From Escherichia coli (GTDB taxonomy: Bacteria; Pseudomonadota; Gammaproteobacteria; Enterobacterales; Enterobacteriaceae), in assembly GCF_024502345.1 (NCBI RefSeq), contig NZ_JALDNN010000001.1: DNA of 64,000 bases, one strand, 5' to 3'. How positions within the stretch are numbered: position 1 is the stretch's first letter; each line of letters begins with the position of its first letter. Positions 11,763 through 47,873 of the stretch are shown piece after piece. Position numbers and translations under genes: made by a program. The notes beneath the pieces are model-generated. The model was not told where the DNA came from. It did no database searches and worked only from the letters and a program-made list of their open reading frames with translations.

Positions 11763-13311
11763 AATAGGTTGTGGTTACCCTGAAAAGCAAATATTACCCC
11801 AGAGGGATGTATATACCCGGGGCAAGAGCCCCTGTACCAGTCCCTCATTGCTGTCATGATATTATTACCCCGTTCAATAAGCCCGATAAATAATCGTTAT
11901 CGGGACTACTGCTAAAACGCCCTGTAACGCATCAGGAGCGCCATATTCATACTAACCACAGATTTCCACTATCGTGTTATTCAATGCGCTTATGCAGGCT
12001 CACAGGAAGCTATGGCGGTATAAGACACTACAGCGCTCAATTACTTATTAAATAGCTTGCGGTGATTACCAGGATAATCACCCTATTCCACGTCACCTCA
12101 ATCGGGTTATTCTGTTTACGATACAATCATGACTATTATCACCAACACGGATAATGCCCCGTTTACAGTCGTTACCAATGGCCTTGTTTACACATATCAA
12201 AAAACTTTCAGGGATAACGGGTCACCGTAGTATCTGTAACTGACAGGTATTGTAAGCGTCAATATCAGGCAGACAGAGCAATACCGACAGGCTTACTACA
12301 GGTTAGTTCACTGACTGAGCATTTAACGCTCATCACTAATACGCAGACCAGTAATAAACCATTGATACTCACCTGCTGATTTTCAGGCATGACCATTCAC
12401 CCAAAACGTTACTGTTAACCAGTAACCACCCTGTCGTTATGATTATTAGATTACTGATGTTAATCATCTTCACTTTTATCCTGACGAGGACTAGTCAATG
12501 GTAATATCGACTCAATTCAATTCTGTTTTCTTAATGATAGATTTTTAATGAGTGCTAAACATTCAGGTTGTGACTACATTGAATGGTGTATTTCTTACCT
12601 GATGGCAATGATTGCTCAATGGATACCATCCAATAGTACTATCCCCTTAGTGAATACCTTCAGATAATAATACCTCCCAGGCATAACCCACTTACTGATA
12701 ACACATCATCGATTACTGTTACAAATGATAAGACCCCTTCTTTAATATATTAATACCAATCCAACACGCCAGGCATAACAATAGCTATGAAGATAACCAC
12801 GCCAGACAGCACTTACCTACAACAAACGCCTGCATCAGTTACTCTGGAATTATCTTTTTTCAATAACATGAAAATAGACACCACGTCATATCAAATAACC
12901 TCAATCAAATTAACCCCGTATCATCACTGCCCGCAGAAGCCCTCAATCCTGATTATGAGCAACAAAATGGAAATACCTCATGGCAGCCCGACCTGATACC
13001 AGAAATGCCCCCTGAAGCGAACCAGGCACCATGATGGGGATGAAAACGAAAGCATGCAGGAGAACAAGATAACCTATTGAGACGATACTCATCCAGTAAA
13101 CAGAGAAGCATCTGAGAGATAAACAAAGAAAATGACAACTTTAAAACCATGGTAAAACCTTGTCAAAACCAGTATAAATCAACAATAAAACCTCACGATG
13201 ACTACCAGATGTGTTTTTAAGTGACGATAAAACCATCATCGTGATACTGTGTAGCTACAACAATCACCACCATAACCACTACTATGTAGTTTACGATTAC
13301 AGGTATCCACA

Positions 13312-14280
13312 ATGGTTGTACATTACGACAATGGCAGACAACATCTTATAAAAACCCGTGACCTGAGAGTCTGTGCTTTTTATGCCGGGTGGCTGGGTGT
13401 TAATAAAATAATTAACACCCGTGACATTCCTCACCAGGATGCAGAAAGTTGTCGACAGGCACTCAACAAACTGATTAATCAGTTCATACCGAATGCAGAA
13501 CAGCGGGCAAGACTTTTTTCTGATATGGAAACAGCCCGTGATGAAAACATCCTTCCGCTGGAAAGTTTTGACTGGCTAGAACAGGATGAACGGGCAACAT
13601 TCTGGTTATGGGCGTATATTTGCAAGGCCGGAGACTACGAACTTGGTATTGACAAACCAGCAAATGCAGAGTTCGGAAAGAACTGGTATCAGCGAATGAA
13701 TCTGAGTGTATCTCCGACAAGCCACCAGGAAAGAATTAATATTATCATCTCTTTTTTCGACAACATTATTATTCCGACCCCACCGGTAAATCATCTCAAG
13801 CGCCAGGTCATGGACAGGCTGAAAGACCAGTGGAAAAATATTTACAGCAAACCAGCTCCGCTGAAATGGTTACCTAATGAAGAAGACGCGGTACTGTGGG
13901 CATGGAACAGCCTCAAATCGCTTCAGGAAGAAAGAAATGCGCCCACTATCGGGCTCTCATTAAATATTTCAACGCCAGGAATGAGTACCTGGTTTACCCC
14001 CCTGAGTCATTCTGAACGCAATTTAGCCCTGCGCACGGCGATCGACTTATGGGACGATGCACCGGATACAAAGCGTTTATTCCTTCTGAACCTGAATAAA
14101 GCCTGGAACCAGCAAAAATTACGTCAGTCCCGTACCGATAAAAAAGCACTCAATACGTACCTGAAGAACGAAACAAAAACTCGACTGGACTTTATGGCAG
14201 AACGTAGCGGAGTTCGCATCAGTGATATGCTGGAAATGCTGATTAATGACCATTACCGAAAAACCTGTGGTGGTGAGTGA
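13312..14280 (+). CDS. hypothetical protein (322 aa), paralog of 40616..41503; follows a 1.4-kb G-poor non-coding region
   Basis: Shared FW.W block and similar length with the 40616 ORF; both divergent from a YagK-like gene. Confidence 0.55.
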   Translation: MVVHYDNGRQHLIKTRDLRVCAFYAGWLGVNKIINTRDIPHQDAESCRQALNKLINQFIPNAEQRARLFSDMETARDENILPLESFDWLEQDERATFWLWAYICKAGDYELGIDKPANAEFGKNWYQRMNLSVSPTSHQERINIIISFFDNIIIPTPPVNHLKRQVMDRLKDQWKNIYSKPAPLKWLPNEEDAVLWAWNSLKSLQEERNAPTIGLSLNISTPGMSTWFTPLSHSERNLALRTAIDLWDDAPDTKRLFLLNLNKAWNQQKLRQSRTDKKALNTYLKNETKTRLDFMAERSGVRISDMLEMLINDHYRKTCGGE

Positions 14281-14371
14281 GGGCTTTGCGCTAAAAACAA
14301 GGTGAGCGGAGGCAGTAATACAGACCAGAAATGACATTCAAAATAATTTCAGACCTATATTACCGGTGTGA

Positions 14372-14404
14372 GAACGGCAGCAGAAGTGCTGCCGTTTTGT
14401 TATT
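14372..14404 (+). terminator. putative rho-independent terminator
   Basis: Stem AACGGCAGC / GCTGCCGTT followed by TTGTTATTT. Confidence 0.5.
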
Positions 14405-14629
14405 TCACTCACGGAGGTTAATGTGTCCAGTAAGAACAAACGGGGTCCCGATACCCTGTTACCGTCGTTATTCCTTCTCCCGGGTCAACTGTCCCACAAA
14501 ATACCCGTGCGTATGCTTCTCGCGCTAAGTCACAGCTATGCTTTCTGTTCCGGTACCCAGGTCTCTCTGATACACGGTCCGCCAGCTCATGAAGGCGGCT
14601 ATTTATTGCCAGTAATAAGGGAGAAAGAA

Positions 14630-18277: not shown

Positions 18278-18673
18278 ATGAGACTAGCCAGCCGCTTTGG
18301 ACGGACAAACCAGATCCGTCGCGATCGTCCGTTAACCCGCGAAGAACTGATGCAGGTCGTTCCCAGCGTATTCAGTGCAGATCGCCACGGTTCCAGGAGC
18401 GAAAAATACGCTTACATACCCACCATTACTCTGCTCGAAAATCTTCAACGCGAAGGCTTTGAACCCTTCTTCGCCTGCCAGTCACGCGTACGCGACCCTG
18501 ACCGCCGGGAGCACACCAAACATCTGCTGCGCCATCTTTGTAGACCGGAGAATGATGTTTGGATGAAAGCGAGTTTTGGTACCCTCATCATTGAGGGTAC
18601 CAACAGCAAAATACTCGGCGAATGCTATTGTCTAAGCACAGCGCCAAGCCTTAGCGGCACGAATAGTTGTTAA
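18278..18673 (+). pseudogene. DUF932-family (YafZ-like) gene, 3'-truncated after about 86 codons
   Basis: First 86 aa colinear with the intact paralog at 44557..45375; similarity ends near 18537, where unrelated sequence and the RM cassette begin. Confidence 0.75.
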
Positions 18674-18675
18674 CC

Positions 18676-21414
18676 TTACTCAGCTTTAGCAAACTGCTGG
18701 GTGAAGTAAGCCAATGAATTAGCTTCTTTTACGGCATCATGCGGAATGAGTAAGTATTTCCAAGGTTTGCCACCGTGCTGTGCAAGGTATTCACTGGCAT
18801 GACTACACCATTTCACACCACTGCGGGCTTTTTCGGTGACTTCCTCATTCCAACTGCCGTCTTGGTTTTGATGTTGAGTACTTTTAGTTTCAATCATCAA
18901 TACATAGTCGGCGGTTTCAGCAACGAAATCCGGCACGTATTCAGGATGCTCGCTACCGCGTTTGTAGTACATCTTGAATTGGCCTTTGGCAGGCTTAAAC
19001 CACTTCTCGCAGTCGCGTTCTAAAATCACCGCAAAACGGCGCTCAGTGTCTGAATCAAACTTTTGCAATGGGTATAGACAACGGCTAAAGCCGCCAAAGA
19101 GCATTTGTTTGATGCGACTGACATCGCGTACTGTATCACGGTAGCTTTGCACCGGCTGGTCTTGCGCTATGGTGTAAGCGCAGTCACGTAAGGTACTAAA
19201 GCCACTGCGTACATCGACGACGTACTCGGTTGCTTCTTCAAAGAAGTGGTTGTTCAGTTGCGCATGAATTAACTTCGCAATCGCATCACTCTGGTTTTGC
19301 AGAATGTTCTCAACCACATCGTCGTCGTTTTCAGCGGCCAGTGTATTGACAGCTTGAGTGGCTAGGTCAAACAAAAGTTCAGCTTGCTCGTCGTAAGGAA
19401 TATCGTCGTAATCGAACAGCTTCTTCAAAATATAGTTTTGTTTCACCGGCTCGTAGTTGCCCGAATCGCCTTCGCCACGAATGGTTTGGTGATTGTCTTG
19501 CAGGCTTTGTTGAATCAGAGTTCGGTCGATAGGTTTTAAACCTTTAATGGCAGCAATGTCCAAATCGAACGGGTGATAGCCGGTACGTACTTCACCTGAT
19601 GGTGAAACAATAATACGCGGAATATCTATGGTGTTATCCACCGTGAGCTGGGTGACTTGCTCAACAATCGCCGCAATATCCACCGATTCTTCAGTAAATA
19701 GCTCCCGTTGCTCTTGGGTTAACTGAGCTTTTACTTGTTCGGTGATCTGTGCTTTTACCTCAGTCGTTAACAATGCTTTGCTGGTCGGCGCATCGGTAGG
19801 GCGTGTTTGATATTGCTTGATCACGTCCAATGCAGCGCGGGCAACGGTTTGTTGGTTAGGCGTGGTATAAGTGGCTTTAGGTTCTTGTACCTCACGGTTA
19901 CCGTCTGCACCGGTTGCGGTTACACCTGAACCAGTCAGTTGCTGCTCTAGGTTCGATTTAACCTGCACACTTTGTTTGGTTACATCGTCTTCTGGGCGAT
20001 CTAATACGCGTGTTTTCAGGCGCAGTGGGTTATTCGGGTCGTTAGCCTCATCAACAATTTCTTGGAATTTGTCGTGCGCAACAATGCTCAGCGTATCGAC
20101 GGCTTCAACACCTGTACGTTTGCCATAAGGTAAACGCAAACCACGGCCAATTGACTGTTCAATTAGGGTTCTGGCGTTGGCTGCACGTAGTGGCACAATG
20201 GTGTACAGGTTAGTAACGTCCCAACCTTCTTTCAGCATGTTAACGTGAATGACGATCTCGGTTGGCTCATCGACATGCTCAACATTGAGCAGTGCTTGAA
20301 TAGTTTCTTCTTCTTTTTTACTGCTATCCACTTGAATGACTTTGCCACGGTAGCGGCCGTCAAACACTGTTTCAAGTTTGGTTAAAAGCTCTGCTGCATG
20401 CGTGGTATCACGGGCAATCACCAACATAAAAGGCTTAACTAACTTAGCATCGTTTTCATGTGCATAAGTGATTAAATCCACCTTGGTTTGCTCATGTAAA
20501 CGAATACCGTCCATTAACTTAATGGTTTCTAGTTCGTCTTTATCATATTGGCTGGCATCAAAGTTACGCTGAGTAACAACGGCAGGCTCTTTAACAAAAC
20601 CATCATCCATGGCACAGGCCAATGGGTAATCAATCACCACATTTTTAAAGTGCACAGGGCCACGACTTGATTCGGTAAATGGTGTGGCCGTTAGCTCTAA
20701 TGCGAATAGTGGATTAAGCTCATTGAGCGCACGCATACCGGCATCGGCACGATAGCGATGCGATTCGTCCATCAGCAGCACTAAGTCAGGTAAGTTCGAT
20801 AGATACTCAAAGTAGCTTTCGCCTAGGGTTTCCGCTAAACGCTTAATACGCGGGGCTTTGCCTCCACGTACTTCGGTGTTAATTTTCGCGATGTTAAACA
20901 CATTGATCCGAACCGAACCAAATAGATCGCCCATGACTTGTGCGCCGCGGCTCTCATAGTTATCACCGGTGATCACTTCTGGCGGTGCTAGCACAAAATC
21001 GGTAATGCCTTTAAACACGTACTTCGGTGAGGCGGGCGAGAAATCGCTGATCAGCTTTTCATAAATAGTCAGGTTAGGTGCCAACACAAAATAATTGCGA
21101 ATGCCATGTACCTGATACAAATAGGTAATAAACGCCCCCATCAAACGGGTTTTACCTACACCTGTTGCCAAGGCAAAACACAGTGAAGGAAAGTCACGTT
21201 CAAAATCGCTGAGCTTAGGAAACTGCGCTTTTAAGGTTTCTAATAGCTCCGGCACATCGCGTTTTGGGTTCAGTAGTTTGTGCTCAGAAGCACTAATCGC
21301 CACTGCCAACGCACGCAGCGAATCTTGCTGCGGCTGGCGTAAGCTTAAACGGCCAATAATATTATTAATGGCACGTAATTGGTCGGGTTTTAAGCTTGAT
21401 AAATCCATGGTCAT
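18676..21414 (-). CDS. Type III restriction enzyme Res subunit (SF2 helicase + PD-ExK endonuclease)
   Basis: Helicase motifs I ATGVGKT, II DESH, VI QSIGRGLR; C-terminal PD…ETK (YVPDFVAETADYVLMIETK); directly downstream of the Mod gene. Confidence 0.85.
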   Translation of the reverse strand: MTMDLSSLKPDQLRAINNIIGRLSLRQPQQDSLRALAVAISASEHKLLNPKRDVPELLETLKAQFPKLSDFERDFPSLCFALATGVGKTRLMGAFITYLYQVHGIRNYFVLAPNLTIYEKLISDFSPASPKYVFKGITDFVLAPPEVITGDNYESRGAQVMGDLFGSVRINVFNIAKINTEVRGGKAPRIKRLAETLGESYFEYLSNLPDLVLLMDESHRYRADAGMRALNELNPLFALELTATPFTESSRGPVHFKNVVIDYPLACAMDDGFVKEPAVVTQRNFDASQYDKDELETIKLMDGIRLHEQTKVDLITYAHENDAKLVKPFMLVIARDTTHAAELLTKLETVFDGRYRGKVIQVDSSKKEEETIQALLNVEHVDEPTEIVIHVNMLKEGWDVTNLYTIVPLRAANARTLIEQSIGRGLRLPYGKRTGVEAVDTLSIVAHDKFQEIVDEANDPNNPLRLKTRVLDRPEDDVTKQSVQVKSNLEQQLTGSGVTATGADGNREVQEPKATYTTPNQQTVARAALDVIKQYQTRPTDAPTSKALLTTEVKAQITEQVKAQLTQEQRELFTEESVDIAAIVEQVTQLTVDNTIDIPRIIVSPSGEVRTGYHPFDLDIAAIKGLKPIDRTLIQQSLQDNHQTIRGEGDSGNYEPVKQNYILKKLFDYDDIPYDEQAELLFDLATQAVNTLAAENDDDVVENILQNQSDAIAKLIHAQLNNHFFEEATEYVVDVRSGFSTLRDCAYTIAQDQPVQSYRDTVRDVSRIKQMLFGGFSRCLYPLQKFDSDTERRFAVILERDCEKWFKPAKGQFKMYYKRGSEHPEYVPDFVAETADYVLMIETKSTQHQNQDGSWNEEVTEKARSGVKWCSHASEYLAQHGGKPWKYLLIPHDAVKEANSLAYFTQQFAKAE

Positions 21415-21435
21415 TATAATTATCCTTATTAACCG

Positions 21436-23142
21436 TTAATCTTGCGCTGCATCGTCATCGGCAGACGCATCGTCAGTTAGGTTTGCCACGTTTAACGAAT
21501 AATCGTCCTGACCAAATTGGCACTTGTCTAAAATGGCTTTTGGCAGTTTTTTCAAGGTTAAATTGGTAAAACGACCTGGCTCGCAGCGAAATGCACCACA
21601 CATAACCAGTAAAGTTCGGTCACTGCCAACTTCTTCTGACAGCGCTTCTAATTTATCTACCGATAAGCTTTGTGTGGTGACATAAATATGATCCGTCTCG
21701 GTTGAATAACCGTGATCCCACCAATTCACTTCCGATGGCGCATAGGTAAAACCTTCCAGCTTACAAACGGCTTCGGCGAGCATTTCTGGGTTGTACTCTT
21801 TATTGATCACTTCCAAGCCAAACTTATCTTTCACAATTAAGGTCGGGGCAAGTTTGTAATAGCGGAAGCCACCGCCACCTTGCCAGTTTACAGACTTAGA
21901 AATACCACCTTGATCTTCGCCATCAATCACTTTTTGCAAGCGCGGGATAATATGGGTATGACAATGATCACCTAGCTCGACCGAGATCCAACGTCTTTTC
22001 ATCTTGTGAGCTACAGCAGCAGTAGTTCCCGAACCACCGAATGAATCAAAGACTAAATCGCCTTCTCGCGTACACATTTCGAAAATCCGCTTCAAAAGCG
22101 CTTCGGGTTTTTTTCCATTTTTGAAACTAACGCCGCCTTCATTTGCTATTCCATTCCAACTAATGTCAGTCCAAACATCAGTTATTAGTTCAGCAGGTTG
22201 CATCTCACCGTCAATTTCCAAAAGCCTATTGGAGTAAAAGACCATTTGCCTACCATTTGCGATATAAAAGCCTTCGACATCCTCATTTGGATGTACATAA
22301 ACCTTATCCCTATCTTTCTTTGACTTCTCGATAGTTTCTTTTCTCTTTATTTTAGCACCACCACCAATTGCAACGGATTGAAATACACGTTCTGCATTAT
22401 CAATTGCGAATTGTGCTAATTCATCATCAAATGTATCAGGCAGTTTTTTCTTGGCTTCTTTTGTATCTTTATAGCCATTGGCCTTTGCAAACGCATCGGC
22501 AATACCGCACCACGTCCAACTTTTATAATGGTCATCTGGGTTTAATAGATATTTGTTATATCCCGTATCATATCCTTTAGGTATATAGATTTTGTTAAGC
22601 GGTTTCTGGGTGCGATCTTTTGCGTATACAAGCAAAAAGTTTACTGTGGAGAAAACTGTGGCCCCTGTTGCCTTAAAGCCTGAAGGGTCATTTGTGGTCA
22701 TCGATATGGTATTTAACTGATTTGCACGACCAAAAATCTCGTCCATCAAAACTTTTAAATAAGCCATTTCGCAGTCATCTAAGTGAACGAATATTACTCC
22801 ATCATCACTTAGTAGATTACGAATTATTTCTAACCTATCCCTCATTAAGCCCAGCCAAATGGAATGCTCCAGACCATCATCATAGTGCTCAAAAGCACTT
22901 CCGGTATTGAATGGTGGGTCTATGTAAACACACTTCACTTTGCCTGCATATTCTTGCTCTAGCGCCTTCAATGCCAATAAGTTATCGCCAAAAATCAGTT
23001 TATTATCAAAAATATCGTTTTCGGTCACTTTTTGGCTGGCGTGATAAGACTTGCTCGGGTCTTCTAACAAAATGCGCGGCTCTAACTTTTTGCGCTCGTT
23101 TTTGCCTATCCAGGTCAGTTCTAATTTGGTTTTGCTCATCAT
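21436..23142 (-). CDS. Type III R-M Mod subunit (N6-adenine/N4-cytosine class DNA methyltransferase)
   Basis: Motif IV DPPFN and SAM motif FDSFGGSGTT; mod-res gene order with a 21-bp gap. Confidence 0.85.
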   Translation of the reverse strand: MMSKTKLELTWIGKNERKKLEPRILLEDPSKSYHASQKVTENDIFDNKLIFGDNLLALKALEQEYAGKVKCVYIDPPFNTGSAFEHYDDGLEHSIWLGLMRDRLEIIRNLLSDDGVIFVHLDDCEMAYLKVLMDEIFGRANQLNTISMTTNDPSGFKATGATVFSTVNFLLVYAKDRTQKPLNKIYIPKGYDTGYNKYLLNPDDHYKSWTWCGIADAFAKANGYKDTKEAKKKLPDTFDDELAQFAIDNAERVFQSVAIGGGAKIKRKETIEKSKKDRDKVYVHPNEDVEGFYIANGRQMVFYSNRLLEIDGEMQPAELITDVWTDISWNGIANEGGVSFKNGKKPEALLKRIFEMCTREGDLVFDSFGGSGTTAAVAHKMKRRWISVELGDHCHTHIIPRLQKVIDGEDQGGISKSVNWQGGGGFRYYKLAPTLIVKDKFGLEVINKEYNPEMLAEAVCKLEGFTYAPSEVNWWDHGYSTETDHIYVTTQSLSVDKLEALSEEVGSDRTLLVMCGAFRCEPGRFTNLTLKKLPKAILDKCQFGQDDYSLNVANLTDDASADDDAAQD

Positions 23143-23196
23143 TTCTGTGCTCTTATCTTGTGTTCGTTACTTAGCGTTATTATTCTACAGCAATCG

Positions 23197-25062
23197 CTAC
23201 GCAGGTTGTGCTTGGCGATTACTCGCTTGGGTGTTTTGCCCTTGTCGGCGTTGCGCTTGCTCGGCTAAGTAACTGAATAAATTCTGGTTGTGTGGGTCGT
23301 TCGCTTGAAGGCGTTCTTGTTTTGCTACAACTGCCGGGCTTTCTGCCAAGTTTAAATGGCTAATCCACACCGTTTGCATTAAACGTGCGGTATCGCCCAA
23401 GCGTTTGAAGTATGCGTGCGGCGCACTGCCTAATACTAATGCCGTAAAACTATCAAAAAATTGCTGACGAAGTTCATCAAAAGCGTGGCTGATTAATCTT
23501 TTAAATGCCGCTTGCTCGGTAATCTCAGGAGCCGTAATAGCGCCTTCAAACTGCGCCATTAATAGCGTGGTTATGCAGTAAGTAAAATGTCGATATACCA
23601 GTTTTTCTGGGCTTGGACTACTGCGCTCTGCGTTTGTACATAAGACTTGAATAGCCAGATAGCAGTTCACCGCGTTAATGGCGACGGCCCCCTGTAAATC
23701 TGTACTAAAAACGGCTTGGTACTCGGCACTTTCTTGGTTAGTGAATTTGCTTGGCTCTACTTTTAGCTGATAAGGCACGCGTACATCACCGTGCATACAG
23801 GCCAATGCTTTGGCCAAGGTGTCGATAGTAATGCTGCGAATACCCGCTGCTGCGCTTTGTTGTGGGCGGTAGAGATATTCAACACCAAACATTTTCATCT
23901 CTTGGCGCAAGCGTTCTTGGGTATCATCCAGCGCGGCAAAGTTGGCTAAATCGACCGGGTTTTGCAGGTTACGCGCTTTGGTTACTTGTTTGTGAAATGC
24001 ATCGTTACCCGTGTTGATAATGGTTACCATCACTTGAGCTTGGCTGATGTCTGCATTTGGGTTTTCACGCATAAACTGTGCAGCACTAGCAATGGTTTGT
24101 GCACCGTTAACGACGGACAGGCCATCGACTGCAACATGCTTGCTACCTGTGTGGCCTCTAATATTCCCTTTTGGTTTTACTGCATTGCCAACCAGAGTAA
24201 TGCCATTGTTAAGATAAATAAAATTTTCCGGCTCATGTAAAAGGGTGTCTTTAATCGCCCTATTTACCCCACGTCTGCCAGCACCAATAAAATAGCGAAT
24301 ATTTTTCTCGTAAAGTTTACGGTCATGAGTAGTGTGCAAGGCAATTAAATCGGTTAGCTTGGCGATACCAAATACGACTTTTCGTGGTTGTTCTTGCACT
24401 CGGAACTTATATACAGCGACACGCTCGTTTACCGTATCAACCGCATGTTCACTGCGAAGAGCCTGCTCAACATCGGTGGCGGTGTATTCTTGATATTCAG
24501 GTGCGATTTGCTCTTCACCTTCATCAATCAGCTCTTGGATCGCTGGTTGTAGGTAGTTTTGTGCTTGTATGGTAATGCCATTACCTGTGTATGCGACAAG
24601 CAGTTGAATTCTTTCGCACTCGTCTAATGCGGCTTCAATATTTGCTTGAAGGTTTTGAACATTTTGATTAAAGCGGTGAAATTGCTTGTTTAAAAGTAAC
24701 TTTACACCCTCAATAAAAGCCTGTGCTTCGCCCAATTGGAATTGCGCATCTTCCTTCATTTTTGACTGTACTAAGTACAGAGTCTGATCAGCTTCGTGAT
24801 AATAAATTGCATCAATACCATGGTCTTCATAGTCGTCCACCACAGCTTTTGCTGCGGTCACTACGTCTAAATCGAATTTTTGCTGTAGTACGAATGCGCT
24901 AAAAGCCCTGGAAATTTGCTTTTTAGGTTTATCTTCTCGCCCACCTTGCCCAAGCAATGGCGGTAAATGCGGCACAAAACGCTGCTGTAGCAGTTCTTTT
25001 AATAGGGTAAGAAATTGTGGTTGTAATGCTGCCAAGTGAGTTGTCCTTATTTTTATTGCCAA
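23197..25062 (-). CDS. large abortive-infection-like protein, tentatively AIPR family (621 aa)
   Basis: Size and context (between an Abi_2 gene and an RM system) and a remembered VVNGAQT-like block; family assignment from memory only. Start overlaps the upstream stop by 10 nt. Confidence 0.4.
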
Positions 25063-25994
25063 ATTGGCCGCGCTTGCCAGTCGGCTGGAAAGCCCATGCG
25101 GTCAATGTCTATTTGGTGATGATTTATCAATTGGATGAGTCGTTGCTTCCAGTGATGTTCACCACTGATCACATCCATGAGGTAGCCCAACATCACCAAG
25201 GTGTTATAAATTTTTCGTAAACGCCGGTCGCTATCGGGCAGGTTTTGCAAGCTTTGAATCAGTGCCGGTTCACCATGGCGTGGCAGTACCGTGGTTTTAA
25301 TAAAATCACGGTTCCATAGCCTAGAATGATGGGCACTTAAATTGCGCACTAGCGACAAATGCTCACAGAATGAGGTAAGAGTTTTTTCATCTAGGCCGTA
25401 GCTTTTGCTTATTACCTGGCGGTCGGCACGCAGCTTGATATTGCTGTACCAACAGGAAAGTTGCCCCATGGTTAACAGCTCAACACAGGCCCAAATAGGG
25501 GGTAGTGGCTCTTGATATTTTTGCGTAAGGTGCTTGATGAACTCTTCACGACTGCACTTTACCTCACCCGTGAGTTTGCCAAGGCTACTGGCGTATTCTA
25601 ATAAATCACCAAAGAGCTCTGGTTTTAAATGAGGGTGCGCGGTTTGGTATTTTTGGCTCAACTGATACGCAATTTGTGTGCGTAATGACACCTCAAAACG
25701 CTCGATGGCATCTAGCACTAACAAACGTAGTTCACGGTCGAAAACATATAGGCTTAGGACTTGGTCAAACTGAGTACCTGTGATAAACGTATGACTGGCA
25801 TGATCTTGCTCATAGGGCAAACAATAAGCCGCAAAACGATAGTAGTTCAGCTGTGCTAAGTAAAACTCAGCTTTCGGGACATCACTGATCACTAGGCCAC
25901 GTTGTTGCAACAAGCGTACTTGATCGCTAAAGCTTGTAGGGGGCTTGGTAAAAGCGACTTTAGGGACTGGTTTGCGGCTCATTTGACCTCCCAT
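25053..25994 (-). CDS. Abi_2-family (AbiD/AbiF-like) abortive infection protein
   Basis: 313 aa with N-terminal …[17 protein letters not shown]… signature, which I recall as typical of Abi_2 proteins. Confidence 0.55.
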
Positions 25995-26139
25995 GCAACA
26001 GAAGATCGAATTTTGCGGGCCCCAGAAACGAGTAACCCCTCACAGGGCGCTGATCTGACGGGTAGCGGGAGGGGTGTTGTTGCAGTGATCATAGCCCCAA
26101 ACTGAAAAAAGTCAATGCTGGCGTTGAAATTGATTGTCA

Positions 26140-29034
26140 TCATTGAACCGTCCACCCAATGGTAAATAGGGTCTCTTGGCTGGTTTTTTTATTCAGTTTG
26201 CCTTCTAAGCTTTCAATCAGCTGTTCGCGCTTTTCGTCCACTTCATCTTGTTTATCAAACAGTTCACGGCGGCTTTTATTGCGCTGACTTTCTAACTGGC
26301 GCTGCTGTTTTTGCAGGGCAAGTTTCTCTTCCAGGGTTGGAGCTATTTTGGCTTCGCGGCGTACTTGCTTGATTTGCTTATCAAGCTCTTTTATAGATTG
26401 TTCAAGCCCTTCTTTTAAATCGTCTGCCCAAGAATCTAACTTGTTTACCTCTTGCTCGAAGAAGCTGAGATTACGATCGTTAACTTGCTTTTCGATGCCT
26501 AGTCTCGACTGCTGTAACGCATGCTGCAGCGCATATTGATAGCCAGGATATAAGGCGGCAAGTTCTTGCTCACTTACTTCACTTTGCACACAGGCACTAA
26601 GCTGCATCAGCTTTTGCACGACTTCACTTGGTAGCGGATGACCATGTTCATCTTGCGCGGCGAACAATAAATGGTCTTCGCTACGCTCCAATGATTCGAC
26701 ACTAAATTTTTGTAGGCTTAGTACACCTGACAAACCCACTAAGGGTTCTAGCATACTGATTTTTGTTTGGTGGTTGCTGTAATCAAAAATTACGCTGGCA
26801 ATGGGTAATTCACGTTGAAGCGCGTTGCTGATCACCCATTCACCCAGCGGGTGGGTGATACGATACACATGGGCATTGGCTAGTTTACCGGTTTCAATAC
26901 TGCCGCTTTGCTGTCCTCGGCGTACAAGTTGGTAGCTACCTGTAGGAGCCTGATTGATACTTTGATTAAGCGTAAAACTATGGTTGCTTGGGTCAATGTC
27001 TGCGATAGCTGCAAGTTCATGCGTACTGAGTTGCCAGAACCAACGGCCTACTTTATCGAGGCGTTGCTGCGCGGCATCTAGCTGAATTTTGAGTAAGTCG
27101 TGAATATCTTCATCGAAATTTTCCAGCAGCAGTTGCTGGGTCTCGCGCATTTTTTGGTTGATGTCGGCTTCTAGCTCTTTTTGCAATTGATCAAAAGCTG
27201 CTTCTATTTCCGCCGGTTGCCGACAAGTCTCGTATATATTTTGGATGCGTTTTTCAAAATCAATACCAGATTCAATGCTGCCTAGCACATCGTCCGATGC
27301 ACCAAACACGCCATCGAACAGATGGAATTTTTCAGTCAGTAACTCTAAAACACGCTGATCGGCTTTGTTGGCTTCGTTGAGGAAGTTGATCACCACAACA
27401 TCAAATTGCTGCCCATAGCGGTGACAACGGCCAATACGTTGCTCTACTCGTTGTGGGTTCCATGGTAAGTCATAGTTAATAAGTAACGAACAGAACTGTA
27501 AGTTAACCCCTTCTGCAGCCGCTTCGGTTGCGATCATAACTTCGGCATGATGGCGGAAGTAATCAATTAGGGCAGTACGGCGGTCAATTTGCGGTGAACC
27601 ACTCACCTTATCACTACCTTGGTTTTCAGCTAACCACTGCTGATAAACTTTGGTTGCTTCTGGATGGTTATTGCTGCCACTAAAGGTGACTAATTTATCA
27701 GCAAAGCCATTCGCCTCGAGGAAACGAGCTAGGTATTCTTGCGTGCGCTTCGATTCGGTAAAAATAATGACTTTACGTGGCGCCCCCATTTCCTCCATTT
27801 TGGCAAACCCTTGATTAAGCGCCGTTAGCAAGGCTTGGGTTTTACTGTCGGTGGTAATGGATTTAGCCTGCTCGATATAATGCTCAAGCTCGGCTATTTC
27901 AGCATTGAGTAACTCAAAGTCAATATCACTCTCAGGGGTATTGCTTTGTGTTTCTTCTACATACTCGCTGTACTCTTCTCCTAAATCATCACTCTCAACA
28001 AGCTCACTGATAATATCGAGGTCCGATTTAGCCTGTACTTTCAAGTCAACCAATCGGCGCTTTATAGTTTCGAGTGTGTTGAGCACTGCGTGCGAACTAG
28101 ATGCTAATAGCTTTCTCAGTATAAGGCCGGTTAAATGACGTTGGCTCTTGGGTAGTGCATAGCTCTCGTCCTTTTCCAATAAGGCACTAATACTTTCGTA
28201 AAGTGCCATCTCAGCATTAGAGGGTGTAAACGGTACGGTGAGTGTTTGACGTTGGGTATAGCGGACGTATTCGAGTACATCTTTGCGCAAGGTACGCTGA
28301 ATAAACCCGGTAAGTCGTTTCTTTAAATGCCCTAGCGCACTTTCGTTATTGACAAAGTGTTGTTTGAAGCTTCGCTCATCGCCGAAGATTTGATCGTCGA
28401 TAATGGTTGAAAGTCCATACAATTCCATGAGCGAGTTTTGTAAGGGTGTTGCAGTAAGTAATAGCTTTTTACTGCCATCTAATGCGCGGCGTAGCGTTTG
28501 ACCCATTTTATTGCTGCTACGATGTGCATTACGTAGCTTGTGCGCTTCGTCGATGACGACAATATCCCATGGCTCTAGCATTAGCTGCGTTTCCATTCTC
28601 GCAGCATAGTGATAGGACATAATAGAAACGCAGTGATTAGCTAGCGGGTTAGTTTGACCATTGTTAACACTAATGCGCCACGTTTTTGCATCAAGCACTT
28701 GCGTTGGTAAATTAAACTTATCGCCCAATTCCTGCGCCCACTGGCGTCGCAATGACGCCGGGCAGATGATCAATATGCGGCGTTTACGCTCTGCCCAATA
28801 CTGTGACAGTACTAAGCCTGCTTCAATAGTTTTCCCTAAGCCCACTTCATCAGCGAGTACAACACCTTTGCTTAACGGGTTGTTGAGCGCAAAAAGTGCC
28901 GCATGAATTTGGTGCGGATTGAGATCAACACTGGCATCAAAAAGAGATTGAGACAATTTATCAACGCCATTTTCAGCGTGGCGAATGGTTAATTCCTGCG
29001 CAAAGTATTTTGCTTGATAATCAGTTATTACCAT
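26140..29034 (-). CDS. SNF2-family helicase (about 965 aa) with C-terminal coiled-coil-rich region
   Basis: Motifs I LADEVGLGKT, II VIDEAHKLRN, III LLLTATPLQN, VI QRIGRCHRYGQ. Start set at MVITDYQ (29034) so that overlap with the upstream HTH gene is 14 nt rather than 95. Confidence 0.85.
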   Translation of the reverse strand: MVITDYQAKYFAQELTIRHAENGVDKLSQSLFDASVDLNPHQIHAALFALNNPLSKGVVLADEVGLGKTIEAGLVLSQYWAERKRRILIICPASLRRQWAQELGDKFNLPTQVLDAKTWRISVNNGQTNPLANHCVSIMSYHYAARMETQLMLEPWDIVVIDEAHKLRNAHRSSNKMGQTLRRALDGSKKLLLTATPLQNSLMELYGLSTIIDDQIFGDERSFKQHFVNNESALGHLKKRLTGFIQRTLRKDVLEYVRYTQRQTLTVPFTPSNAEMALYESISALLEKDESYALPKSQRHLTGLILRKLLASSSHAVLNTLETIKRRLVDLKVQAKSDLDIISELVESDDLGEEYSEYVEETQSNTPESDIDFELLNAEIAELEHYIEQAKSITTDSKTQALLTALNQGFAKMEEMGAPRKVIIFTESKRTQEYLARFLEANGFADKLVTFSGSNNHPEATKVYQQWLAENQGSDKVSGSPQIDRRTALIDYFRHHAEVMIATEAAAEGVNLQFCSLLINYDLPWNPQRVEQRIGRCHRYGQQFDVVVINFLNEANKADQRVLELLTEKFHLFDGVFGASDDVLGSIESGIDFEKRIQNIYETCRQPAEIEAAFDQLQKELEADINQKMRETQQLLLENFDEDIHDLLKIQLDAAQQRLDKVGRWFWQLSTHELAAIADIDPSNHSFTLNQSINQAPTGSYQLVRRGQQSGSIETGKLANAHVYRITHPLGEWVISNALQRELPIASVIFDYSNHQTKISMLEPLVGLSGVLSLQKFSVESLERSEDHLLFAAQDEHGHPLPSEVVQKLMQLSACVQSEVSEQELAALYPGYQYALQHALQQSRLGIEKQVNDRNLSFFEQEVNKLDSWADDLKEGLEQSIKELDKQIKQVRREAKIAPTLEEKLALQKQQRQLESQRNKSRRELFDKQDEVDEKREQLIESLEGKLNKKTSQETLFTIGWTVQ

Positions 29035-29227
29035 CCAACACCCCTTTTCCTTGAGCTGCTTGCGTACTGATCCATTCTTCAAGATCGGATTGTTTAAAGC
29101 GCCAAGCATTGCCAACTTTAAAAGCAGGAATTTTATGTACCGCTGCTAGACGGTAAACAGTTCTCTCATTTACCTTCAAATACTCAGCTACTTCTTTAAT
29201 TGTCAGAACGGTATCAGTCATTTTCAC
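29021..29227 (-). CDS. small helix-turn-helix DNA-binding protein (excisionase/MerR-like HTH)
   Basis: LTIKEVAEYLKVNERTVYRLAAVHKIPAFKVGNAWRFKQSDLEEWI is a typical HTH_17-type pattern; overlaps the SNF2 start. Confidence 0.7.
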   Translation of the reverse strand: MKMTDTVLTIKEVAEYLKVNERTVYRLAAVHKIPAFKVGNAWRFKQSDLEEWISTQAAQGKGVLDGNN

Positions 29228-29433
29228 TCGGCCACTTTGAAAAGTGCGTCAATTATCTAATGCGAGTGTCAAAATAGTACAAATAAGTACATGAATCAAT
29301 CTTATTCGGCACTTGCCGGAGCTCCTTGGCTTTAATCCTCATCAATTTTAGGTACAGTTTTCAGGCTCGGGGATAAAGTATAAAGAATGTCGTACTGCCG
29401 CTGCCAGAGCAATATTCCCCCCTGCTGGTTGTA

Positions 29434-44556: not shown

Positions 44557-45375
44557 ATGCGATTAGCAAGTCGTTTTGGTTATGCGAACCAGATACGCCG
44601 TGACCGCCCCTTAACTCGCGAAGAACTGATGCAGGTCGTCCCCAGCGTATTCGGGGAAAATAAGCACACATCCAGAAGCGAGAACTATACCTGGATCCCC
44701 ACCATCACCGTGCTGGAAAGCCTGCAGCGGGAAGGCTTTCAGCCCTTCTTTGCCTGCCAGACCCGCGTACGTGACCCGGGCCGCCGGGGGTATACCAAAC
44801 ACATGCTGCGTCTGCGCCATGACGGGGAGATAAACGGACAACATGTCCCTGAAATCATCCTACTGAACTCCCATGACGGTACCTCCAGCTACCAGATGCT
44901 GCCGGGTTACTTCAGGTTCGTCTGCCAGAACGGCTGCGTCTGTGGTCAGTCTCTGGGGGAAGTGCGTGTTCCACACCGGGGAAATGTGGTGGACAGAGTC
45001 ATTGAAGGGGCTTACGAGGTGGTGGGCGTGTTTGACCGGATTGAGGAAAAGCGTGATGCCATGCAGTCGCTGGTCCTGCCGCCACCGGCACGCCAGGCGC
45101 TGGCACAGGCGGCGCTGACTTACCGTTATGGTGACGAACATCAGCCCGTCACCACCGCTGACATTCTGACACCACGACGCAGGGAGGATTACGGTAAGGA
45201 CCTGTGGAGTGCTTATCAGACCATCCAGGAGAATATGCTGAAAGGCGGGATTTCCGGGCGCAGCGCAAAAGGAAAACGTATCCATACCCGGGCCATTCAC
45301 AGCATCGGTACCGACATTAAGCTCAATCGCGCATTGTGGGTGATGGCAGAAACGCTGCTGGAGAGCATGCGCTGA
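44557..45375 (+). CDS. DUF932-family protein (YafZ-like), intact copy
   Basis: 272 aa; N-terminal 86 aa nearly identical to the truncated 18278 copy. Confidence 0.8.
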   Translation: MRLASRFGYANQIRRDRPLTREELMQVVPSVFGENKHTSRSENYTWIPTITVLESLQREGFQPFFACQTRVRDPGRRGYTKHMLRLRHDGEINGQHVPEIILLNSHDGTSSYQMLPGYFRFVCQNGCVCGQSLGEVRVPHRGNVVDRVIEGAYEVVGVFDRIEEKRDAMQSLVLPPPARQALAQAALTYRYGDEHQPVTTADILTPRRREDYGKDLWSAYQTIQENMLKGGISGRSAKGKRIHTRAIHSIGTDIKLNRALWVMAETLLESMR

Positions 45376-45466
45376 TGCTGTTTCCCTGAAAGTACAGCCC
45401 TGACTCACGGCTGTACCAGTCTCCGGGCATTCTTCCATTCATTTACTTTTTATAAGGAATAACCTC

Positions 45467-45952
45467 ATGACAACCGTTTCGCATAATTCCACCACACCTT
45501 CTGTTTCCGTAACCGCTGCATCAGGGAATAACCCACCTCAGCTGGTTGCCACTCCCGTCCCTGATGAACAGTGCATCAGCTTCTGGCCGCAGCACTTTGG
45601 CCTCATTCCACAGTGGGTGACCCTGGAGCCCCGTATCTTCGGCTGGATGGACCGTCTGTGTGAAGACTACTGCGGTGGTATCTGGAATCTGTACACCCTG
45701 AACAACGGTGGGGCATTTATGGCACCCGAACCGGATGACGATGATGACGAAACATGGGTACTGTTCAATGCCATGAACGGTAACCGCGCTGAAATGAGTC
45801 CGGAAGCCGCCGGCATTGCTGCCTGTCTGATGACGTACAGTCATCATGCCTGTCGAACGGAGTGTTATGCCATGACGGTCCACTATTACCGGCTGCGGGA
45901 TTACGCCCTACAGCATCCGGAATGCAGCGCCATTATGCGCATCATCGACTGA
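45467..45952 (+). CDS. antirestriction protein (YfjX/YafX/KlcA-like)
   Basis: …FWPQHFGLIPQWVTLEPRIFGWMDRLCEDYCGGIWNLYTLNNGGAFMAP… is typical of the antirestriction family. Confidence 0.8.
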   Translation: MTTVSHNSTTPSVSVTAASGNNPPQLVATPVPDEQCISFWPQHFGLIPQWVTLEPRIFGWMDRLCEDYCGGIWNLYTLNNGGAFMAPEPDDDDDETWVLFNAMNGNRAEMSPEAAGIAACLMTYSHHACRTECYAMTVHYYRLRDYALQHPECSAIMRIID

Positions 45953-46444
45953 ATGGAGACAGGGACAATGCAGCAGCTTTCCTTTCTGCCCGGAGAGATG
46001 ACGCCCGGCGAGCGCAGTCTCATTCTGCGGGCCCTGAAAACCCTGGACCGCCATCTTCATGAACCCGGCGTGGCCTTCACCTCCACCCGTGCGGCACGGG
46101 AATGGCTGATTCTGAACATGGCGGGACTGGAGCGTGAAGAATTCCGGGTGCTGTATCTGAATAACCAGAATCAGCTGATTGCCGGTGAGACCCTCTTCAC
46201 AGGCACCATCAACCGCACGGAAGTCCATCCCCGGGAAGTGATTAAACGCGCCCTGTATCACAATGCCGCAGCCGTGGTGCTGGCACACAATCACCCGTCA
46301 GGTGAAGTCACACCCAGTAAGGCTGACCGCCTTATTACGGAACGTCTGGTACAGGCACTGGCCCTGGTGGATATCCGGGTGCCGGACCATCTGATAATCG
46401 GTGGCAGCCAGGTTTTCTCCTTTGCTGAACACGGTCTGCTTTAA
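45953..46444 (+). CDS. RadC-like JAB-domain protein (YeeS/YfjY/YkfG-like)
   Basis: JAMM motif …HNHPSGEVTPSKAD… . Confidence 0.85.
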   Translation: METGTMQQLSFLPGEMTPGERSLILRALKTLDRHLHEPGVAFTSTRAAREWLILNMAGLEREEFRVLYLNNQNQLIAGETLFTGTINRTEVHPREVIKRALYHNAAAVVLAHNHPSGEVTPSKADRLITERLVQALALVDIRVPDHLIIGGSQVFSFAEHGLL

Positions 46445-46512
46445 CCCGTCACCATCACAACCACATCACACTTGTTTTCACTTTTATCTTCTGTCTTCAG
46501 AGGTATCCCATC

Positions 46513-46734
46513 ATGAAAATTATCACCCGTGGTGAAGCCATGCGTATTCACCAACAGAATCCTGCATCCCGTCTTTTTCCGTTCTGTACCGGTAAGTACC
46601 GCTGGCACGGCAGTGCTGAAACGTATACCGGTCGTGAAGTGCAGGATATTCCCGGTGTGCTGGCCGTGTTTGCTGAACGCCGTAAGGACAGTTTTGGCCC
46701 GTATGTCCGGTTGATGAGCGTCACTCTGAACTGA
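46513..46734 (+). CDS. DUF987-family protein (YeeT/YkfH-like)
   Basis: MKIITRGEAMRIHQQNPASRLFPFCTGKYRWHGSAETYTGREVQDIPGVLAVFAERR… . Confidence 0.8.
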   Translation: MKIITRGEAMRIHQQNPASRLFPFCTGKYRWHGSAETYTGREVQDIPGVLAVFAERRKDSFGPYVRLMSVTLN

Positions 46735-46752
46735 GTCAGAAAGGGGATTCTG

Positions 46753-47784
46753 ATGAGCAGCATTATCACCACCACAGTGTATACGCTGGATGAACTTTCC
46801 TGCCCTTCTGCACGGGAAAAAGCCCGCGACTGGTACCGTGTGCACCATTCTGACAGCAACTGGTATGAAAACGTGTACGAGGACTTCAGGGCGGTCTGTG
46901 GCATTTTCGGAATTGACCTCCGCCAGCGCGTTTTCCGGCTCAGCAACGGCAGGTTTATGGAAGAGCCGTGCATCTGGTTCAGCGGATTCTGCAGCCAGGG
47001 GGACGGAGCCTGTTTTGAAGGACGCTGGCACTGGCAGTCAGCAACAGCCAGGAGGCTCCGGGAGTATGCCACACAGGACCATGAACTCCATCGTATCGCG
47101 GATGCCCTGCAGGCGGTGCAGAAACGTAACTTCTGGCAACTGCAGGCTGAAATCCACCACCGGGGACGTTACTGCCATCCGTACAGCATGGATATCACTG
47201 TTACCCGGAACAGTCCGACTGGTCAGGCTATGACAGCCGATGCGGAAGCCGCTGTCAGCGAAGCCCTGCGCGACCTGGCCTTCTGGTTGTACCGTCAGCT
47301 GGAAAACGAGTACGACAGGCTGACCTCTGATGCCGCTGTTGATGAGGCCCTTCTCATCAACGAATACACCTTCACCGAAGCCGGTCTGCGCGCCGGCTTA
47401 CCTGAGGACTTTATCGTGTCAGACAAACTCCATGAGACAAATTATCCCGACGACCATAACGACCGCCTCTGGTGGGGACTGCTCTGCACCGTGACGCCCT
47501 GTTTCGGGGCACGTCTGGTGCAGGAGGGTAACCGGTTGCATTACCTTGTCGACCGCGCCGGCATCAGAGGCCTGTTCAGCGATGCAGATGCGTACCACCT
47601 GGACCAGGCCTTTCCGCTGCTGATGAAACAACTGGAGCTCATGCTCACCAGCGGTGAACTGAATCCCCGCCATCAGCATACCGTGACACTGTATGCGAAG
47701 GGGCTGACCTGTGAAGCCGACACCCTCGGCTCCTGTGGTTACGTTTATCTGGCTGTTTATCCGACGCCCGAAACGAAAAAGTAA
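46753..47784 (+). CDS. 343-codon ORF: unknown 222-aa N-terminal region fused in frame to a CbeA/YeeU-type antitoxin domain (C-terminal about 122 aa)
   Basis: C-terminal part …DDHNDRLWWGLLCTVTPCFGARLVQEGNRLHYLVDRAGIRGLFSDADAYHLDQAFPLLMKQLELMLTSGELNPRHQHTVTLYAKGLTCEADTLGSCGYVYLAVYPTPE matches CbeA. A GTG at 47418 sits where K-12 cbeA has its ATG, so a 122-aa product from 47418 is also possible. Confidence 0.6.
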   Translation: MSSIITTTVYTLDELSCPSAREKARDWYRVHHSDSNWYENVYEDFRAVCGIFGIDLRQRVFRLSNGRFMEEPCIWFSGFCSQGDGACFEGRWHWQSATARRLREYATQDHELHRIADALQAVQKRNFWQLQAEIHHRGRYCHPYSMDITVTRNSPTGQAMTADAEAAVSEALRDLAFWLYRQLENEYDRLTSDAAVDEALLINEYTFTEAGLRAGLPEDFIVSDKLHETNYPDDHNDRLWWGLLCTVTPCFGARLVQEGNRLHYLVDRAGIRGLFSDADAYHLDQAFPLLMKQLELMLTSGELNPRHQHTVTLYAKGLTCEADTLGSCGYVYLAVYPTPETKK

Positions 47785-47873
47785 CTCTCCAGAATAACCT
47801 TCTACTCCGGCCTGGTGCTTTCACCACGCCACTTTTCCATTTTTCATCTCTGCATATCAGGAAAATCTTCAGT

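Follow-up and report, generated by a model that had tools for sequence, protein, structure and literature searches.

We analysed a 64,000-nucleotide stretch of Escherichia coli DNA (RefSeq assembly GCF_024502345.1, contig NZ_JALDNN010000001.1), referred to here as the window, and studied a cassette of six genes on its minus strand between positions 18676 and 29227. Read along that strand, the genes encode a small helix-turn-helix (HTH) protein, an SNF2 ATPase, an Abi_2 protein, an AIPR protein, and the Mod and Res proteins of a Type III-like restriction-modification (R-M) pair. Our comparative analysis indicated, with good confidence, that the cassette is a mobile module of two layers. One layer is a conserved SNF2-Mod-Res frame, to which the HTH gene is optional; the other is cargo lying between SNF2 and Mod, here Abi_2 together with AIPR. 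The parts themselves are known, and the principle has been noticed twice recently, as an SNF2 gene beside Type III mod and res and as defence genes embedded in modification systems. New here are the constant cargo slot in one subfamily of the frame (clade A below), its load of Abi_2 and AIPR, and a distinct Mod/Res subfamily that is tied to the same SNF2 family across phyla.

The SNF2-Mod-Res frame and its cargo slot

One genome per species (GTDB representatives) was scanned with an alignment of the C-terminal 330 residues of the SNF2 protein, and 69 loci were obtained. In clade A, whose SNF2 proteins are 61-99% identical to that of the window, every locus with at least 7.5 kb of downstream sequence (26/26) had Mod and Res genes of the same subfamilies as the window, with order and strand unchanged. 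The linkage was also approached from the side of Res. Five of eight full-length plasmid homologues (42-47% identical) were examined, from Aeromonas, Deinococcus, Sphingopyxis, Roseomonas and Ketogulonicigenium, and an SNF2 gene lay upstream of Res in all five. The Ketogulonicigenium locus represents a minimal form, in which SNF2, Mod and Res abut and cargo is absent. An earlier reading of this DNA, made from the letters only and called here the sequence-only reading, had described the SNF2 protein as a stand-alone helicase. Both sets of loci speak against this description, and the protein is better regarded as the partner of this Mod-Res pair.

A second group, clade B, comprises 26 loci with SNF2 proteins 53-60% identical to that of the window. 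In these loci SNF2 is followed by a Mod of 1021 amino acids (aa) and then by a Res of 1114-1125 aa, and both match REBASE-derived Type III models in PADLOC other than those matched by the proteins of the window.

SNF2-Mod-Res is the invariant frame of these loci, and Abi_2, AIPR and HTH are dispensable passengers or accessories. The Abi_2 gene is missing from relatives whose frames are otherwise 70-86% identical, and the AIPR gene is missing from a Methylophaga frame that is 95% identical. Only 19 of 62 related loci have an open reading frame (ORF) homologous to HTH that adjoins the start of SNF2. Copies in the selC island of Shiga-toxin-type E. coli (2014C-3011, locus L083 8674-9294; SMN013SH2, SMN152SH1, SMN197SH3 and OkiPb01679) have an internally deleted AIPR gene, of which a 206-aa remnant is left, and their other five genes are intact. 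The two Abi-type genes had been read as neighbours of the R-M pair; they proved to be interchangeable passengers of a cargo slot and not fixed neighbours.

The interval between SNF2 and Mod in clade A always measures 0.76-4 kb, and it holds cargo in 26 of 26 loci. We found AIPR alone in eight loci, Abi_2 with AIPR in seven loci plus the window, and Abi_2 alone in Methylophaga, within the 95% identical frame. The other loads are diverse: an OLD-family nuclease (L014, L018), PD-T4-4 A and B (L031, L035), an HTH protein of the XRE/HigA type, with PD-Lambda-2_B as its best match in PADLOC (L023, L026), HEC-06 (L027), an SMC/LmuB-like ATPase (L032) and RhuM (L005). The slot is occupied by an AAA ATPase with a DUF4276 protein in Aeromonas, and by AIPR, an HTH protein and VapC in Deinococcus. 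A second slot, between Mod and Res, was found in nine clade-A loci, mostly from Methylococcales; its contents at two loci were a protein with only pAgo and SIR2-fusion matches in PADLOC, and a PDC-S02 nuclease. Cargo is present in 12 of the 26 clade-B loci, where it includes HEC-01A/B, HEC-03A/B, HEC-04, HEC-06 and PDC-S05.

Some slot ORFs of relatives are uncharacterised. The ORF of L025 at 3524-4282 (252 aa) has no match in PADLOC or NCBIfam, that of L046 at 14030-14584 (184 aa) has none in PADLOC, and that of L080 at 4603-6186 (527 aa) is annotated as hypothetical only. By the logic of embedding, such uncharacterised ORFs may be regarded as candidate new defence genes.

Genes and proteins of the cassette

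The six genes are co-directional, as the sequence-only reading had described them, and the family call that it made for each protein was reproduced by Pfam, PADLOC and NCBIfam. In near-identical E. coli copies the cassette genes are annotated without pseudogene flags, and a motif search found the catalytic motifs of SNF2, Res, Mod and Abi_2 intact. The genes are closely spaced. Res and Mod are separated by 21 nucleotides (nt), Mod and AIPR by 54 nt, and Abi_2 and SNF2 by about 157 nt; AIPR and Abi_2 are 17 nt apart with the annotated starts, or overlap by 10 nt with the longer ORF, and the HTH and SNF2 genes overlap by 14 nt. The cassette had also been read as AT-richer than its surroundings, and the composition agrees with this. 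Its guanine plus cytosine (GC) content is 0.448, whereas the left flank has 0.537 and the right flank 0.518. At third codon positions the GC content of the cassette genes is 0.30-0.48; the ORFs of the left flank, together with the intact DUF932 paralog at 44557, have 0.63-0.73.

The SNF2 ATPase (26140-29034, minus strand, 964 aa; the longest ORF extends to 29115 and the annotated start is 29034) matched SNF2-rel_dom (2e-34) and Helicase_C (1e-16) in Pfam and DrmD (2e-208) in PADLOC. In NCBIfam it scored 697 bits with DrmD_b (cut-off 950) and 304 bits with DrmD across the full length (cut-off 610). The motifs GLGKT, DEAH and QRIGRCHR are present, and of 56 full-length ORFs of the SNF2 family, 55 retain ATPase motifs I, II and VI. 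Because these motifs are so conserved, the protein appears to be an active ATPase of the double-stranded DNA translocase type that is under selection. Its layout is a helicase core, a C-terminal beta-rich domain and then a long coiled-coil hairpin; the C-terminal domain was modelled with a pLDDT of 85.9. RapA is the nearest relative among solved structures. The C-terminal fold is also found in SNF2 proteins of about 950 aa from many phyla, and the domain family contains 1,807 cluster representatives at E ≤ 1e-10. Fold searches with this domain gave no functional lead. A metagenome contig (L086 475-13917) encodes a distant SNF2 relative of 1480 aa, extended at the C terminus by about 500 residues. 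Next to it come a 316-aa ORF, an 1872-aa DEAD/YjiV_N helicase, a PDDEXK_1 nuclease, an HhH-GPD glycosylase and a C5 DNA methylase, so that the same SNF2 family is found here in another modification-linked setting.

Mod (21436-23142, minus strand, 568 aa) matched the PADLOC model MTase_III over its full length (residues 1-568; 944 bits, 7e-285). The DPPF motif (motif IV) lies at residue 75, ahead of FGGSGT (motif I) at residue 368. This order and the model match point to a beta-class N6-adenine methyltransferase of the Type III Mod kind. Res (18676-21414, minus strand, 912 aa) matched REase_III in PADLOC (634 bits, 9e-191) and ResIII in Pfam (1e-19). It contains GVGKT, DESH and QSIGRGLR, and a C-terminal PD...ETK motif at residues 836-852 (828 is the first residue of the printed match). 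Judged by these motifs and by its gene position directly downstream of mod, Res is predicted to be a superfamily 2 (SF2) ATPase with a C-terminal PD-ExK nuclease, as in Type III Res proteins. However, the pair is not the canonical Type III pair that it had been taken for. Against PRK15483, the NCBIfam equivalog of EcoP15I and StyLTI, Res reached 30.9 bits with a cut-off of 564, and by this comparison it belongs to a different subfamily.

The central segment of mod, at 22064..22855 on the minus strand, is exchanged among cassettes that are otherwise nearly identical. Cassettes of Proteus, Pantoea, Methylophaga, Methyloprofundus, Vibrio, Alteromonas and Shewanella can be aligned on either side of this segment and not within it. 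In Proteus, for example, Mod is 63% identical and all other proteins are 97-100% identical. The target-recognition domain of Type III Mod proteins sits between methyltransferase motifs IV and I. Since the swapped segment lies between these motifs, the mod alleles most likely differ in the site that they recognise. No simple-sequence tracts hinting at phase variation were found in mod.

The Abi_2 protein (25053-25982, minus strand, 309 aa; longest ORF to 25994, annotated start 25982) matched Pfam Abi_2 (PF07751, 4.6e-51) and PADLOC AbiD (3.4e-71). It has the HEPN motif R-x4-H as RNLSAH at residue 213, in keeping with the Abi_2/AbiD-AbiF group, and it is predicted to be a HEPN RNase. The AIPR protein (23197-25035, minus strand, 612 aa; longest ORF to 25062, annotated start 25035) contains the AIPR domain (PF10592, 3.7e-38) at residues 251-539, and its PADLOC matches are AbiU (1.4e-37, residues 47-535) and MzaE (6.5e-11).

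The HTH gene (29021-29221/29227, minus strand, 66-68 aa, according to the ORF list and the starts annotated in near-identical E. coli copies) encodes a protein of the excisionase/MerR HTH_17 type. It scored 62.5 bits with the NCBIfam excisionase family TIGR01764 and 81.9 bits with MAD1 (cut-off 80), and PADLOC matched it to mad1 at 3e-10. It is probably an operon regulator that is optional in the family. The non-coding leader upstream of it (29228..29376, minus strand) was delimited by the extent of shared DNA, which ends at 29356 in comparison with other genera and at 29376 in comparison with the E. coli selC island. A GTAC-N6-GTAC palindrome (gtacttatttgtac, minus strand) lies in the leader between 29250 and 29300, as does a short AAATAGTAC tandem. 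These elements could form an operator for the HTH protein.

Mobility and the junction of two islands

At least 80% of the block is present in 24 of 5,426 complete E. coli genomes. The cassette is thus accessory and not core DNA, as had been supposed from the sequence. An integrase island at tRNA-Sec (selC) in E. coli CFSAN004176 and in Shiga-toxin strains has no other cargo than the cassette, which lies there between the integrase and setC. The copy in E. coli TUM1881 has IS66 copies on one side and, on the other, the YagK/zinc-ribbon module that also flanks the cassette of the window. Salmonella plasmids (n = 15) encode a 99% identical Res, and they include IncFIB plasmids with floR, tet(A) and aph. 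In the one plasmid examined, the conjugative IncFIB plasmid pR18.1595_113k of Salmonella London (L077 3724-13739), the cassette is interrupted by IS256 between SNF2 and the Abi gene, and AIPR is missing. The same block occurs in Proteus faecis, Pantoea, Catenovulum, Methylophaga and Methyloprofundus with 89-98% nucleotide identity over 18524-29356 of the window, and the difference among the cassettes of these five genera is the replaced central 0.7 kb of mod. Copies in Vibrio and Marinobacter adjoin integrases or AlpA. Terminal repeats, direct or inverted, by which the cassette could be defined as a transposon-like unit were looked for and not found. Since the block moves between genera with the same ends, it appears from these alignments to be one horizontally mobile module.

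Genes beside some copies were also recorded. In Proteus (L006 6552-7661) and Methylophaga (L008 5840-7660), the gene upstream of the cassette resembles the Cch1-type replicative helicase of SCCmec, which suggests that the cassette sits at the end of small integrative, possibly self-replicating elements. In Vibrio fluvialis (L002 3077-9541), the DNA directly upstream of HTH-SNF2-AIPR-Mod-Res encodes a WYL regulator of the BrxR type and contains two large ORFs, of 1160 and 657 aa, without Pfam match. The two ORFs could represent an undescribed defence pair.

On its left, the cassette of the window meets a truncated DUF932 gene. In its residues 1-85 (18278..18533), the ORF at 18278-18673 on the plus strand shares 79% identity with the intact paralog at 44557-45375; similarity then ends, and the ORF runs on to 18673 in DNA unrelated to the family. 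The junction was determined from a three-way alignment of the window, E. coli EH09-18-41 (L075), which has an intact DUF932 gene, and two cassette-bearing loci (L001 and L076). EH09-18-41 carries the same left island with 100% identity up to base 18533 of the window, and in it antirestriction, radC and YeeU/CbtA genes come after the intact DUF932 gene. In all genomes that bear the cassette, the match to the window starts at base 18524. The two parents therefore meet in a 10-nt microhomology at 18524..18533, of which nine positions are shared (ctgctgc[g/a]cc), and in every other copy examined the native downstream flank of the cassette continues past 18524.

We considered insertion of the cassette into DUF932 and rejected it, because the downstream flank continues in the other copies and the parents meet at the microhomology. 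Base 18524 was likewise rejected as the native end of the cassette, because the alignment shows that the junction is specific to the window. The joint in this form is absent from all 5,426 complete E. coli genomes. By the aligned sequences, the cassette sits at an illegitimate joint between two CP4-type islands, and the event also removed its native downstream flank. The sequence-only reading had the cassette replacing the 3' part of DUF932. The truncation is confirmed, with the match ending after codon 85 at base 18533, and comparison with other genomes shows a joint and not an insertion.

The right flank belongs, as that reading held, to a different YagK module, with YagK/inovirus-Gp2, zinc-ribbon and DNA-binding-protein genes. 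Farther right, 44557-48670 is a second, complete CP4-type island module. Its intact DUF932 gene (272 aa) was identified by direct comparison, and ORFs in the positions of the antirestriction, RadC and YeeU/CbtA genes of EH09-18-41 were assigned by ORF size and order. Because this second module lies in the same window, we regard the region as two related islands in tandem with the cassette at their joint. The right end of the window is E. coli core DNA (cadA-lysU-dcuS-fumB-adiA, 99.2% identity). Three more patches of low GC content (0.36-0.40) lie outside the cassette, at 12000-13500, 32500-34000 and 34500-35500, suggesting further foreign segments in the islands.

Relation to known systems and rival explanations

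No named system made of SNF2, Type III, AIPR and Abi_2 components was found in the profile libraries or the literature searched. The sequence-only reading had likewise recognised no single named system. For the six-gene block this stands, but a drmD-like SNF2 gene adjoining mod and res had already been noted by Silas et al. for EcoR22I, a Type III R-M system of E. coli ECOR22 (bioRxiv 10.1101/2023.04.06.535777). Silas et al. have shown that EcoR22I mod and res alone restrict unmodified lambda-vir and cause cell death upon expression of Ocr, an anti-restriction protein of T7, that transposon suppressors fell only in mod and res, and that the nuclease-dead res* carries D1024A/D1043A (10.1101/2023.04.06.535777). 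In the clade-B Res proteins of Salmonella, Enterobacter, Serratia and Pectobacterium, which are 1125 aa long, the aspartate of PD is residue 1024 and that of DxK is residue 1043. Because protein length and both positions coincide, we infer from the sequences that EcoR22I belongs to clade B. The cassette of the window and EcoR22I share the SNF2-Mod-Res order on one strand of a mobile element, the SNF2 family with its C-terminal domain, an N6-adenine Mod with PF01555-type motifs and an SF2 ATPase Res with a C-terminal PD-(D/E)xK nuclease. If EcoR22I is placed in clade B as inferred, the two differ in subfamily and size, with Mod and Res of 568 and 912 aa in the window versus about 1021 and about 1125 aa. 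The window Mod aligns with clade-B loci for 14-66% of its length, at 26-41% identity; for the window Res, tblastn found no match in clade-B loci at E 1e-8. Unlike EcoR22I, the window carries two embedded Abi genes and an HTH gene, and different PADLOC models match.

The cassette resembles class 1 DISARM (drmD-drmMI-drmA-drmB-drmC) in that SNF2 comes first, followed by an adenine methyltransferase and then by an SF2 helicase-type effector, and the best family matches of the SNF2 protein are DrmD models, one of them full-length and both under cut-off. However, the methylase is a Type III Mod and not DrmMI. The complete PADLOC lists for Res, AIPR and Abi_2 contain no match to DrmA, DrmB (DUF1998) or DrmC (PLD), and the cassette has no such genes. 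We therefore rejected membership in DISARM, since the core triplet DrmA/DrmB/DrmC is absent and the DrmD scores stay below threshold (697/950 and 304/610). The small HTH protein reaches the MAD1 model of MADS (mad1-8), and the NCBI pipeline names it 'mads1'. In the model of the MADS authors MAD6-8 are mandatory, and MAD1 is an accessory 'widespread regulator' whose deletion has little effect on defence. None of MAD2-8 was among the PADLOC matches, which were complete for Res, AIPR, Abi_2 and HTH and comprised the best 25 for Mod and SNF2. Membership in MADS was rejected, because the accessory HTH alone matches and the mandatory MAD6-8 were not found. Membership in Hma/BR was also rejected; HmaA matches the SNF2 protein weakly (1.7e-56), but the cassette has no HmaC/DUF499-like gene.

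As in EcoP15I, EcoP1I and StyLTI, mod lies upstream of res (by 21 nt), motif IV precedes motif I, and Res has helicase motifs and a C-terminal PD-ExK. The cassette differs from classical Type III R-M in its distant Res subfamily and in the regular presence of an SNF2 partner and an internal cargo slot. To our knowledge, neither the SNF2 partner nor the cargo slot is a feature of EcoP15I or EcoP1I.

The cargo has its own parallels. Payne et al. have reported that embedded, co-oriented defence genes are common in Hma, BREX, DISARM and Type I R-M loci; the HEC and PDC families stem from this survey of embedding, in which Type III was not analysed as host (bioRxiv 10.1101/2024.01.29.577857). Such 'guilt by embedding' is also treated in PMC12839542 and PMC11232893. 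Our loci agree with these in having small co-oriented systems nested in a modification system and share with them HEC-01, HEC-03, HEC-04, HEC-06, PDC-S02, PDC-S05 and OLD-type nucleases as cargo, whereas the host frame here is an SNF2-linked Type III R-M. The load of the window recalls the lactococcal systems AbiD/AbiF and AbiU, as Abi_2 matches AbiD and AIPR matches AbiU. In its first description AbiU comprised two proteins, the nuclease-like AbiUi and the HEPN protein AbiUii (PMC13064643), which parallels the pair of a HEPN protein (Abi_2) and AIPR in the cassette. Unlike in AbiU, the HEPN partner here is of the Abi_2 family and not AbiUii, and Abi_2 and AIPR are separable in relatives.

On the two-layer reading, Mod would methylate adenine on one strand of a short asymmetric site that differs by allele. 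By analogy with EcoP15I and EcoR22I, Mod-Res would act on unmethylated incoming DNA, with the Res ATPase serving long-range communication and PD-ExK serving cutting. Abi_2 and AIPR may supply abortive infection as a second layer, co-transcribed with the frame. The SNF2 protein could be an ancillary motor that makes restriction broader or protects it, for instance by removing bound proteins or by opposing certain anti-restriction factors. This is our best guess, held with low confidence, and an ancillary role is preferred because SNF2 is unneeded for basic restriction in the sister clade that contains EcoR22I.

Several observations weigh against the two-layer reading. In EcoR22I, the SNF2 gene is required neither for lambda-vir restriction nor for Ocr-triggered death (10.1101/2023.04.06.535777). 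The case for SNF2 as part of the frame is one of genomic linkage, and the loci come from a scan with the SNF2 C-terminal domain and from plasmid Res matches, not from an unbiased census. The linkage is not universal at distance, as L045 and L068 have no Res within 6-7 kb; among distant SNF2 relatives, one stands alone and another lies beside a different set of helicase, nuclease and C5-methylase genes. In Shewanella (L019) the SNF2 protein is 73% but Res 95% identical, and since these identities do not run parallel, the frame recombines internally. For this clade, restriction, methylation site and Abi activity are predictions from sequence and analogy. A scan for promoters and terminators gave no more sites in the cassette than in shuffles, and no functional promoter or terminator could be assigned from it, so the operon structure is likewise a prediction. 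The best site of the scan, TTGACT-16-TATGAT (10/12), lies at 26088..26115 on the minus strand in the gap between SNF2 and Abi_2, and could be a promoter of the passenger genes.

These points bear differently on the rival explanations. The cassette might be an ordinary defence island, in which a Type III R-M pair, AbiD, AIPR/AbiU, and an orphan SNF2 with an HTH gene adjoin by chance at a hotspot. Every part does match a separately described family, the passengers vary, a promoter-like site stands ahead of Abi_2, and the dispensability of SNF2 in EcoR22I fits well. Chance, however, does not readily give the same order, strand and tight spacing in 26/26 and 5/5 loci from Gammaproteobacteria to Deinococcus and a Planctomycetaceae genome, nor passengers that are always inside the frame and never beside it, nor a block that moves with the same ends across genera; the minimal abutting form of Ketogulonicigenium also exists. 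We consider such an island very unlikely. At the other extreme, the six genes might form one obligate multi-component system, new or a variant of MADS or DISARM. They are co-directional and tightly spaced and move as a block among enterobacteria, and the names 'mads1' and DrmD attach to two of them; yet Abi_2, AIPR and HTH are each missing from close relatives, no match to MAD2-8 was seen, DrmA/B/C are absent and the DrmD scores are under their cut-offs, which makes this explanation extremely improbable. An intermediate proposal is that SNF2 is an obligatory third subunit, so that the frame would be a distinct three-component class of ATP-dependent R-M whose Mod-Res pair is non-functional or not tolerated alone. 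The near-universal linkage in the sampled clades and the ATPase motifs kept in 55/56 ORFs are consistent with it, as is the gene position, which is that of drmD in class 1 DISARM, and the modelled C-terminal domain with its long coiled coil could be a docking module. But EcoR22I mod and res suffice for restriction and for Ocr-triggered death, with suppressors confined to those two genes, and in L019 SNF2 and Res have recombined apart; an obligatory role thus seems rather unlikely.

The role of the cargo can also be read in another way. The embedded Abi genes could be guards of the frame, comparable to PrrC in EcoprrI, that are silenced by Mod-Res or SNF2 and released upon phage anti-restriction. 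Cargo is found in 26/26 loci of clade A and 12/26 of clade B, and EcoR22I, a clade-B system by our placement, performs Ocr-triggered death by itself. Moreover, the cargo consists mostly of nuclease or NTPase effectors of Abi type, and PrrC is almost always embedded in Type I R-M (10.1101/2024.01.29.577857). Against this, the evidence is purely correlative, the Ketogulonicigenium frame has no cargo, and the same cargo families (AbiD, PD-T4-4, OLD) act alone elsewhere; we regard guarding as possible but doubtful. A bolder version would make the SNF2-Mod interval of clade A a functional docking slot and not just a recombination hotspot, with the 'anti-anti-restriction' suicide response, which EcoR22I performs by itself, outsourced to whatever effector occupies the slot, and with SNF2 coupling restriction failure or phage inhibitors to the release of that effector. 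We think this quite unlikely; if it were true, SNF2-Mod-Res would be a general chassis for plug-in abortive-infection modules. The two-layer module, a conserved frame with exchangeable cargo, remains our preferred reading.

If the two-layer reading is correct, there would be a whole Type III-like branch of restriction with a DISARM-type SNF2 motor, and the cassette and EcoR22I would offer two tractable contrasts for the job of SNF2. The embedding rule known from Hma, BREX, DISARM and Type I R-M would extend to Type III frames, which would become another place to mine for defence genes. Because the cassette is carried on Salmonella multidrug-resistance plasmids and in islands of Shiga-toxin E. 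coli, it may also affect phage susceptibility and DNA uptake in clinically relevant strains.

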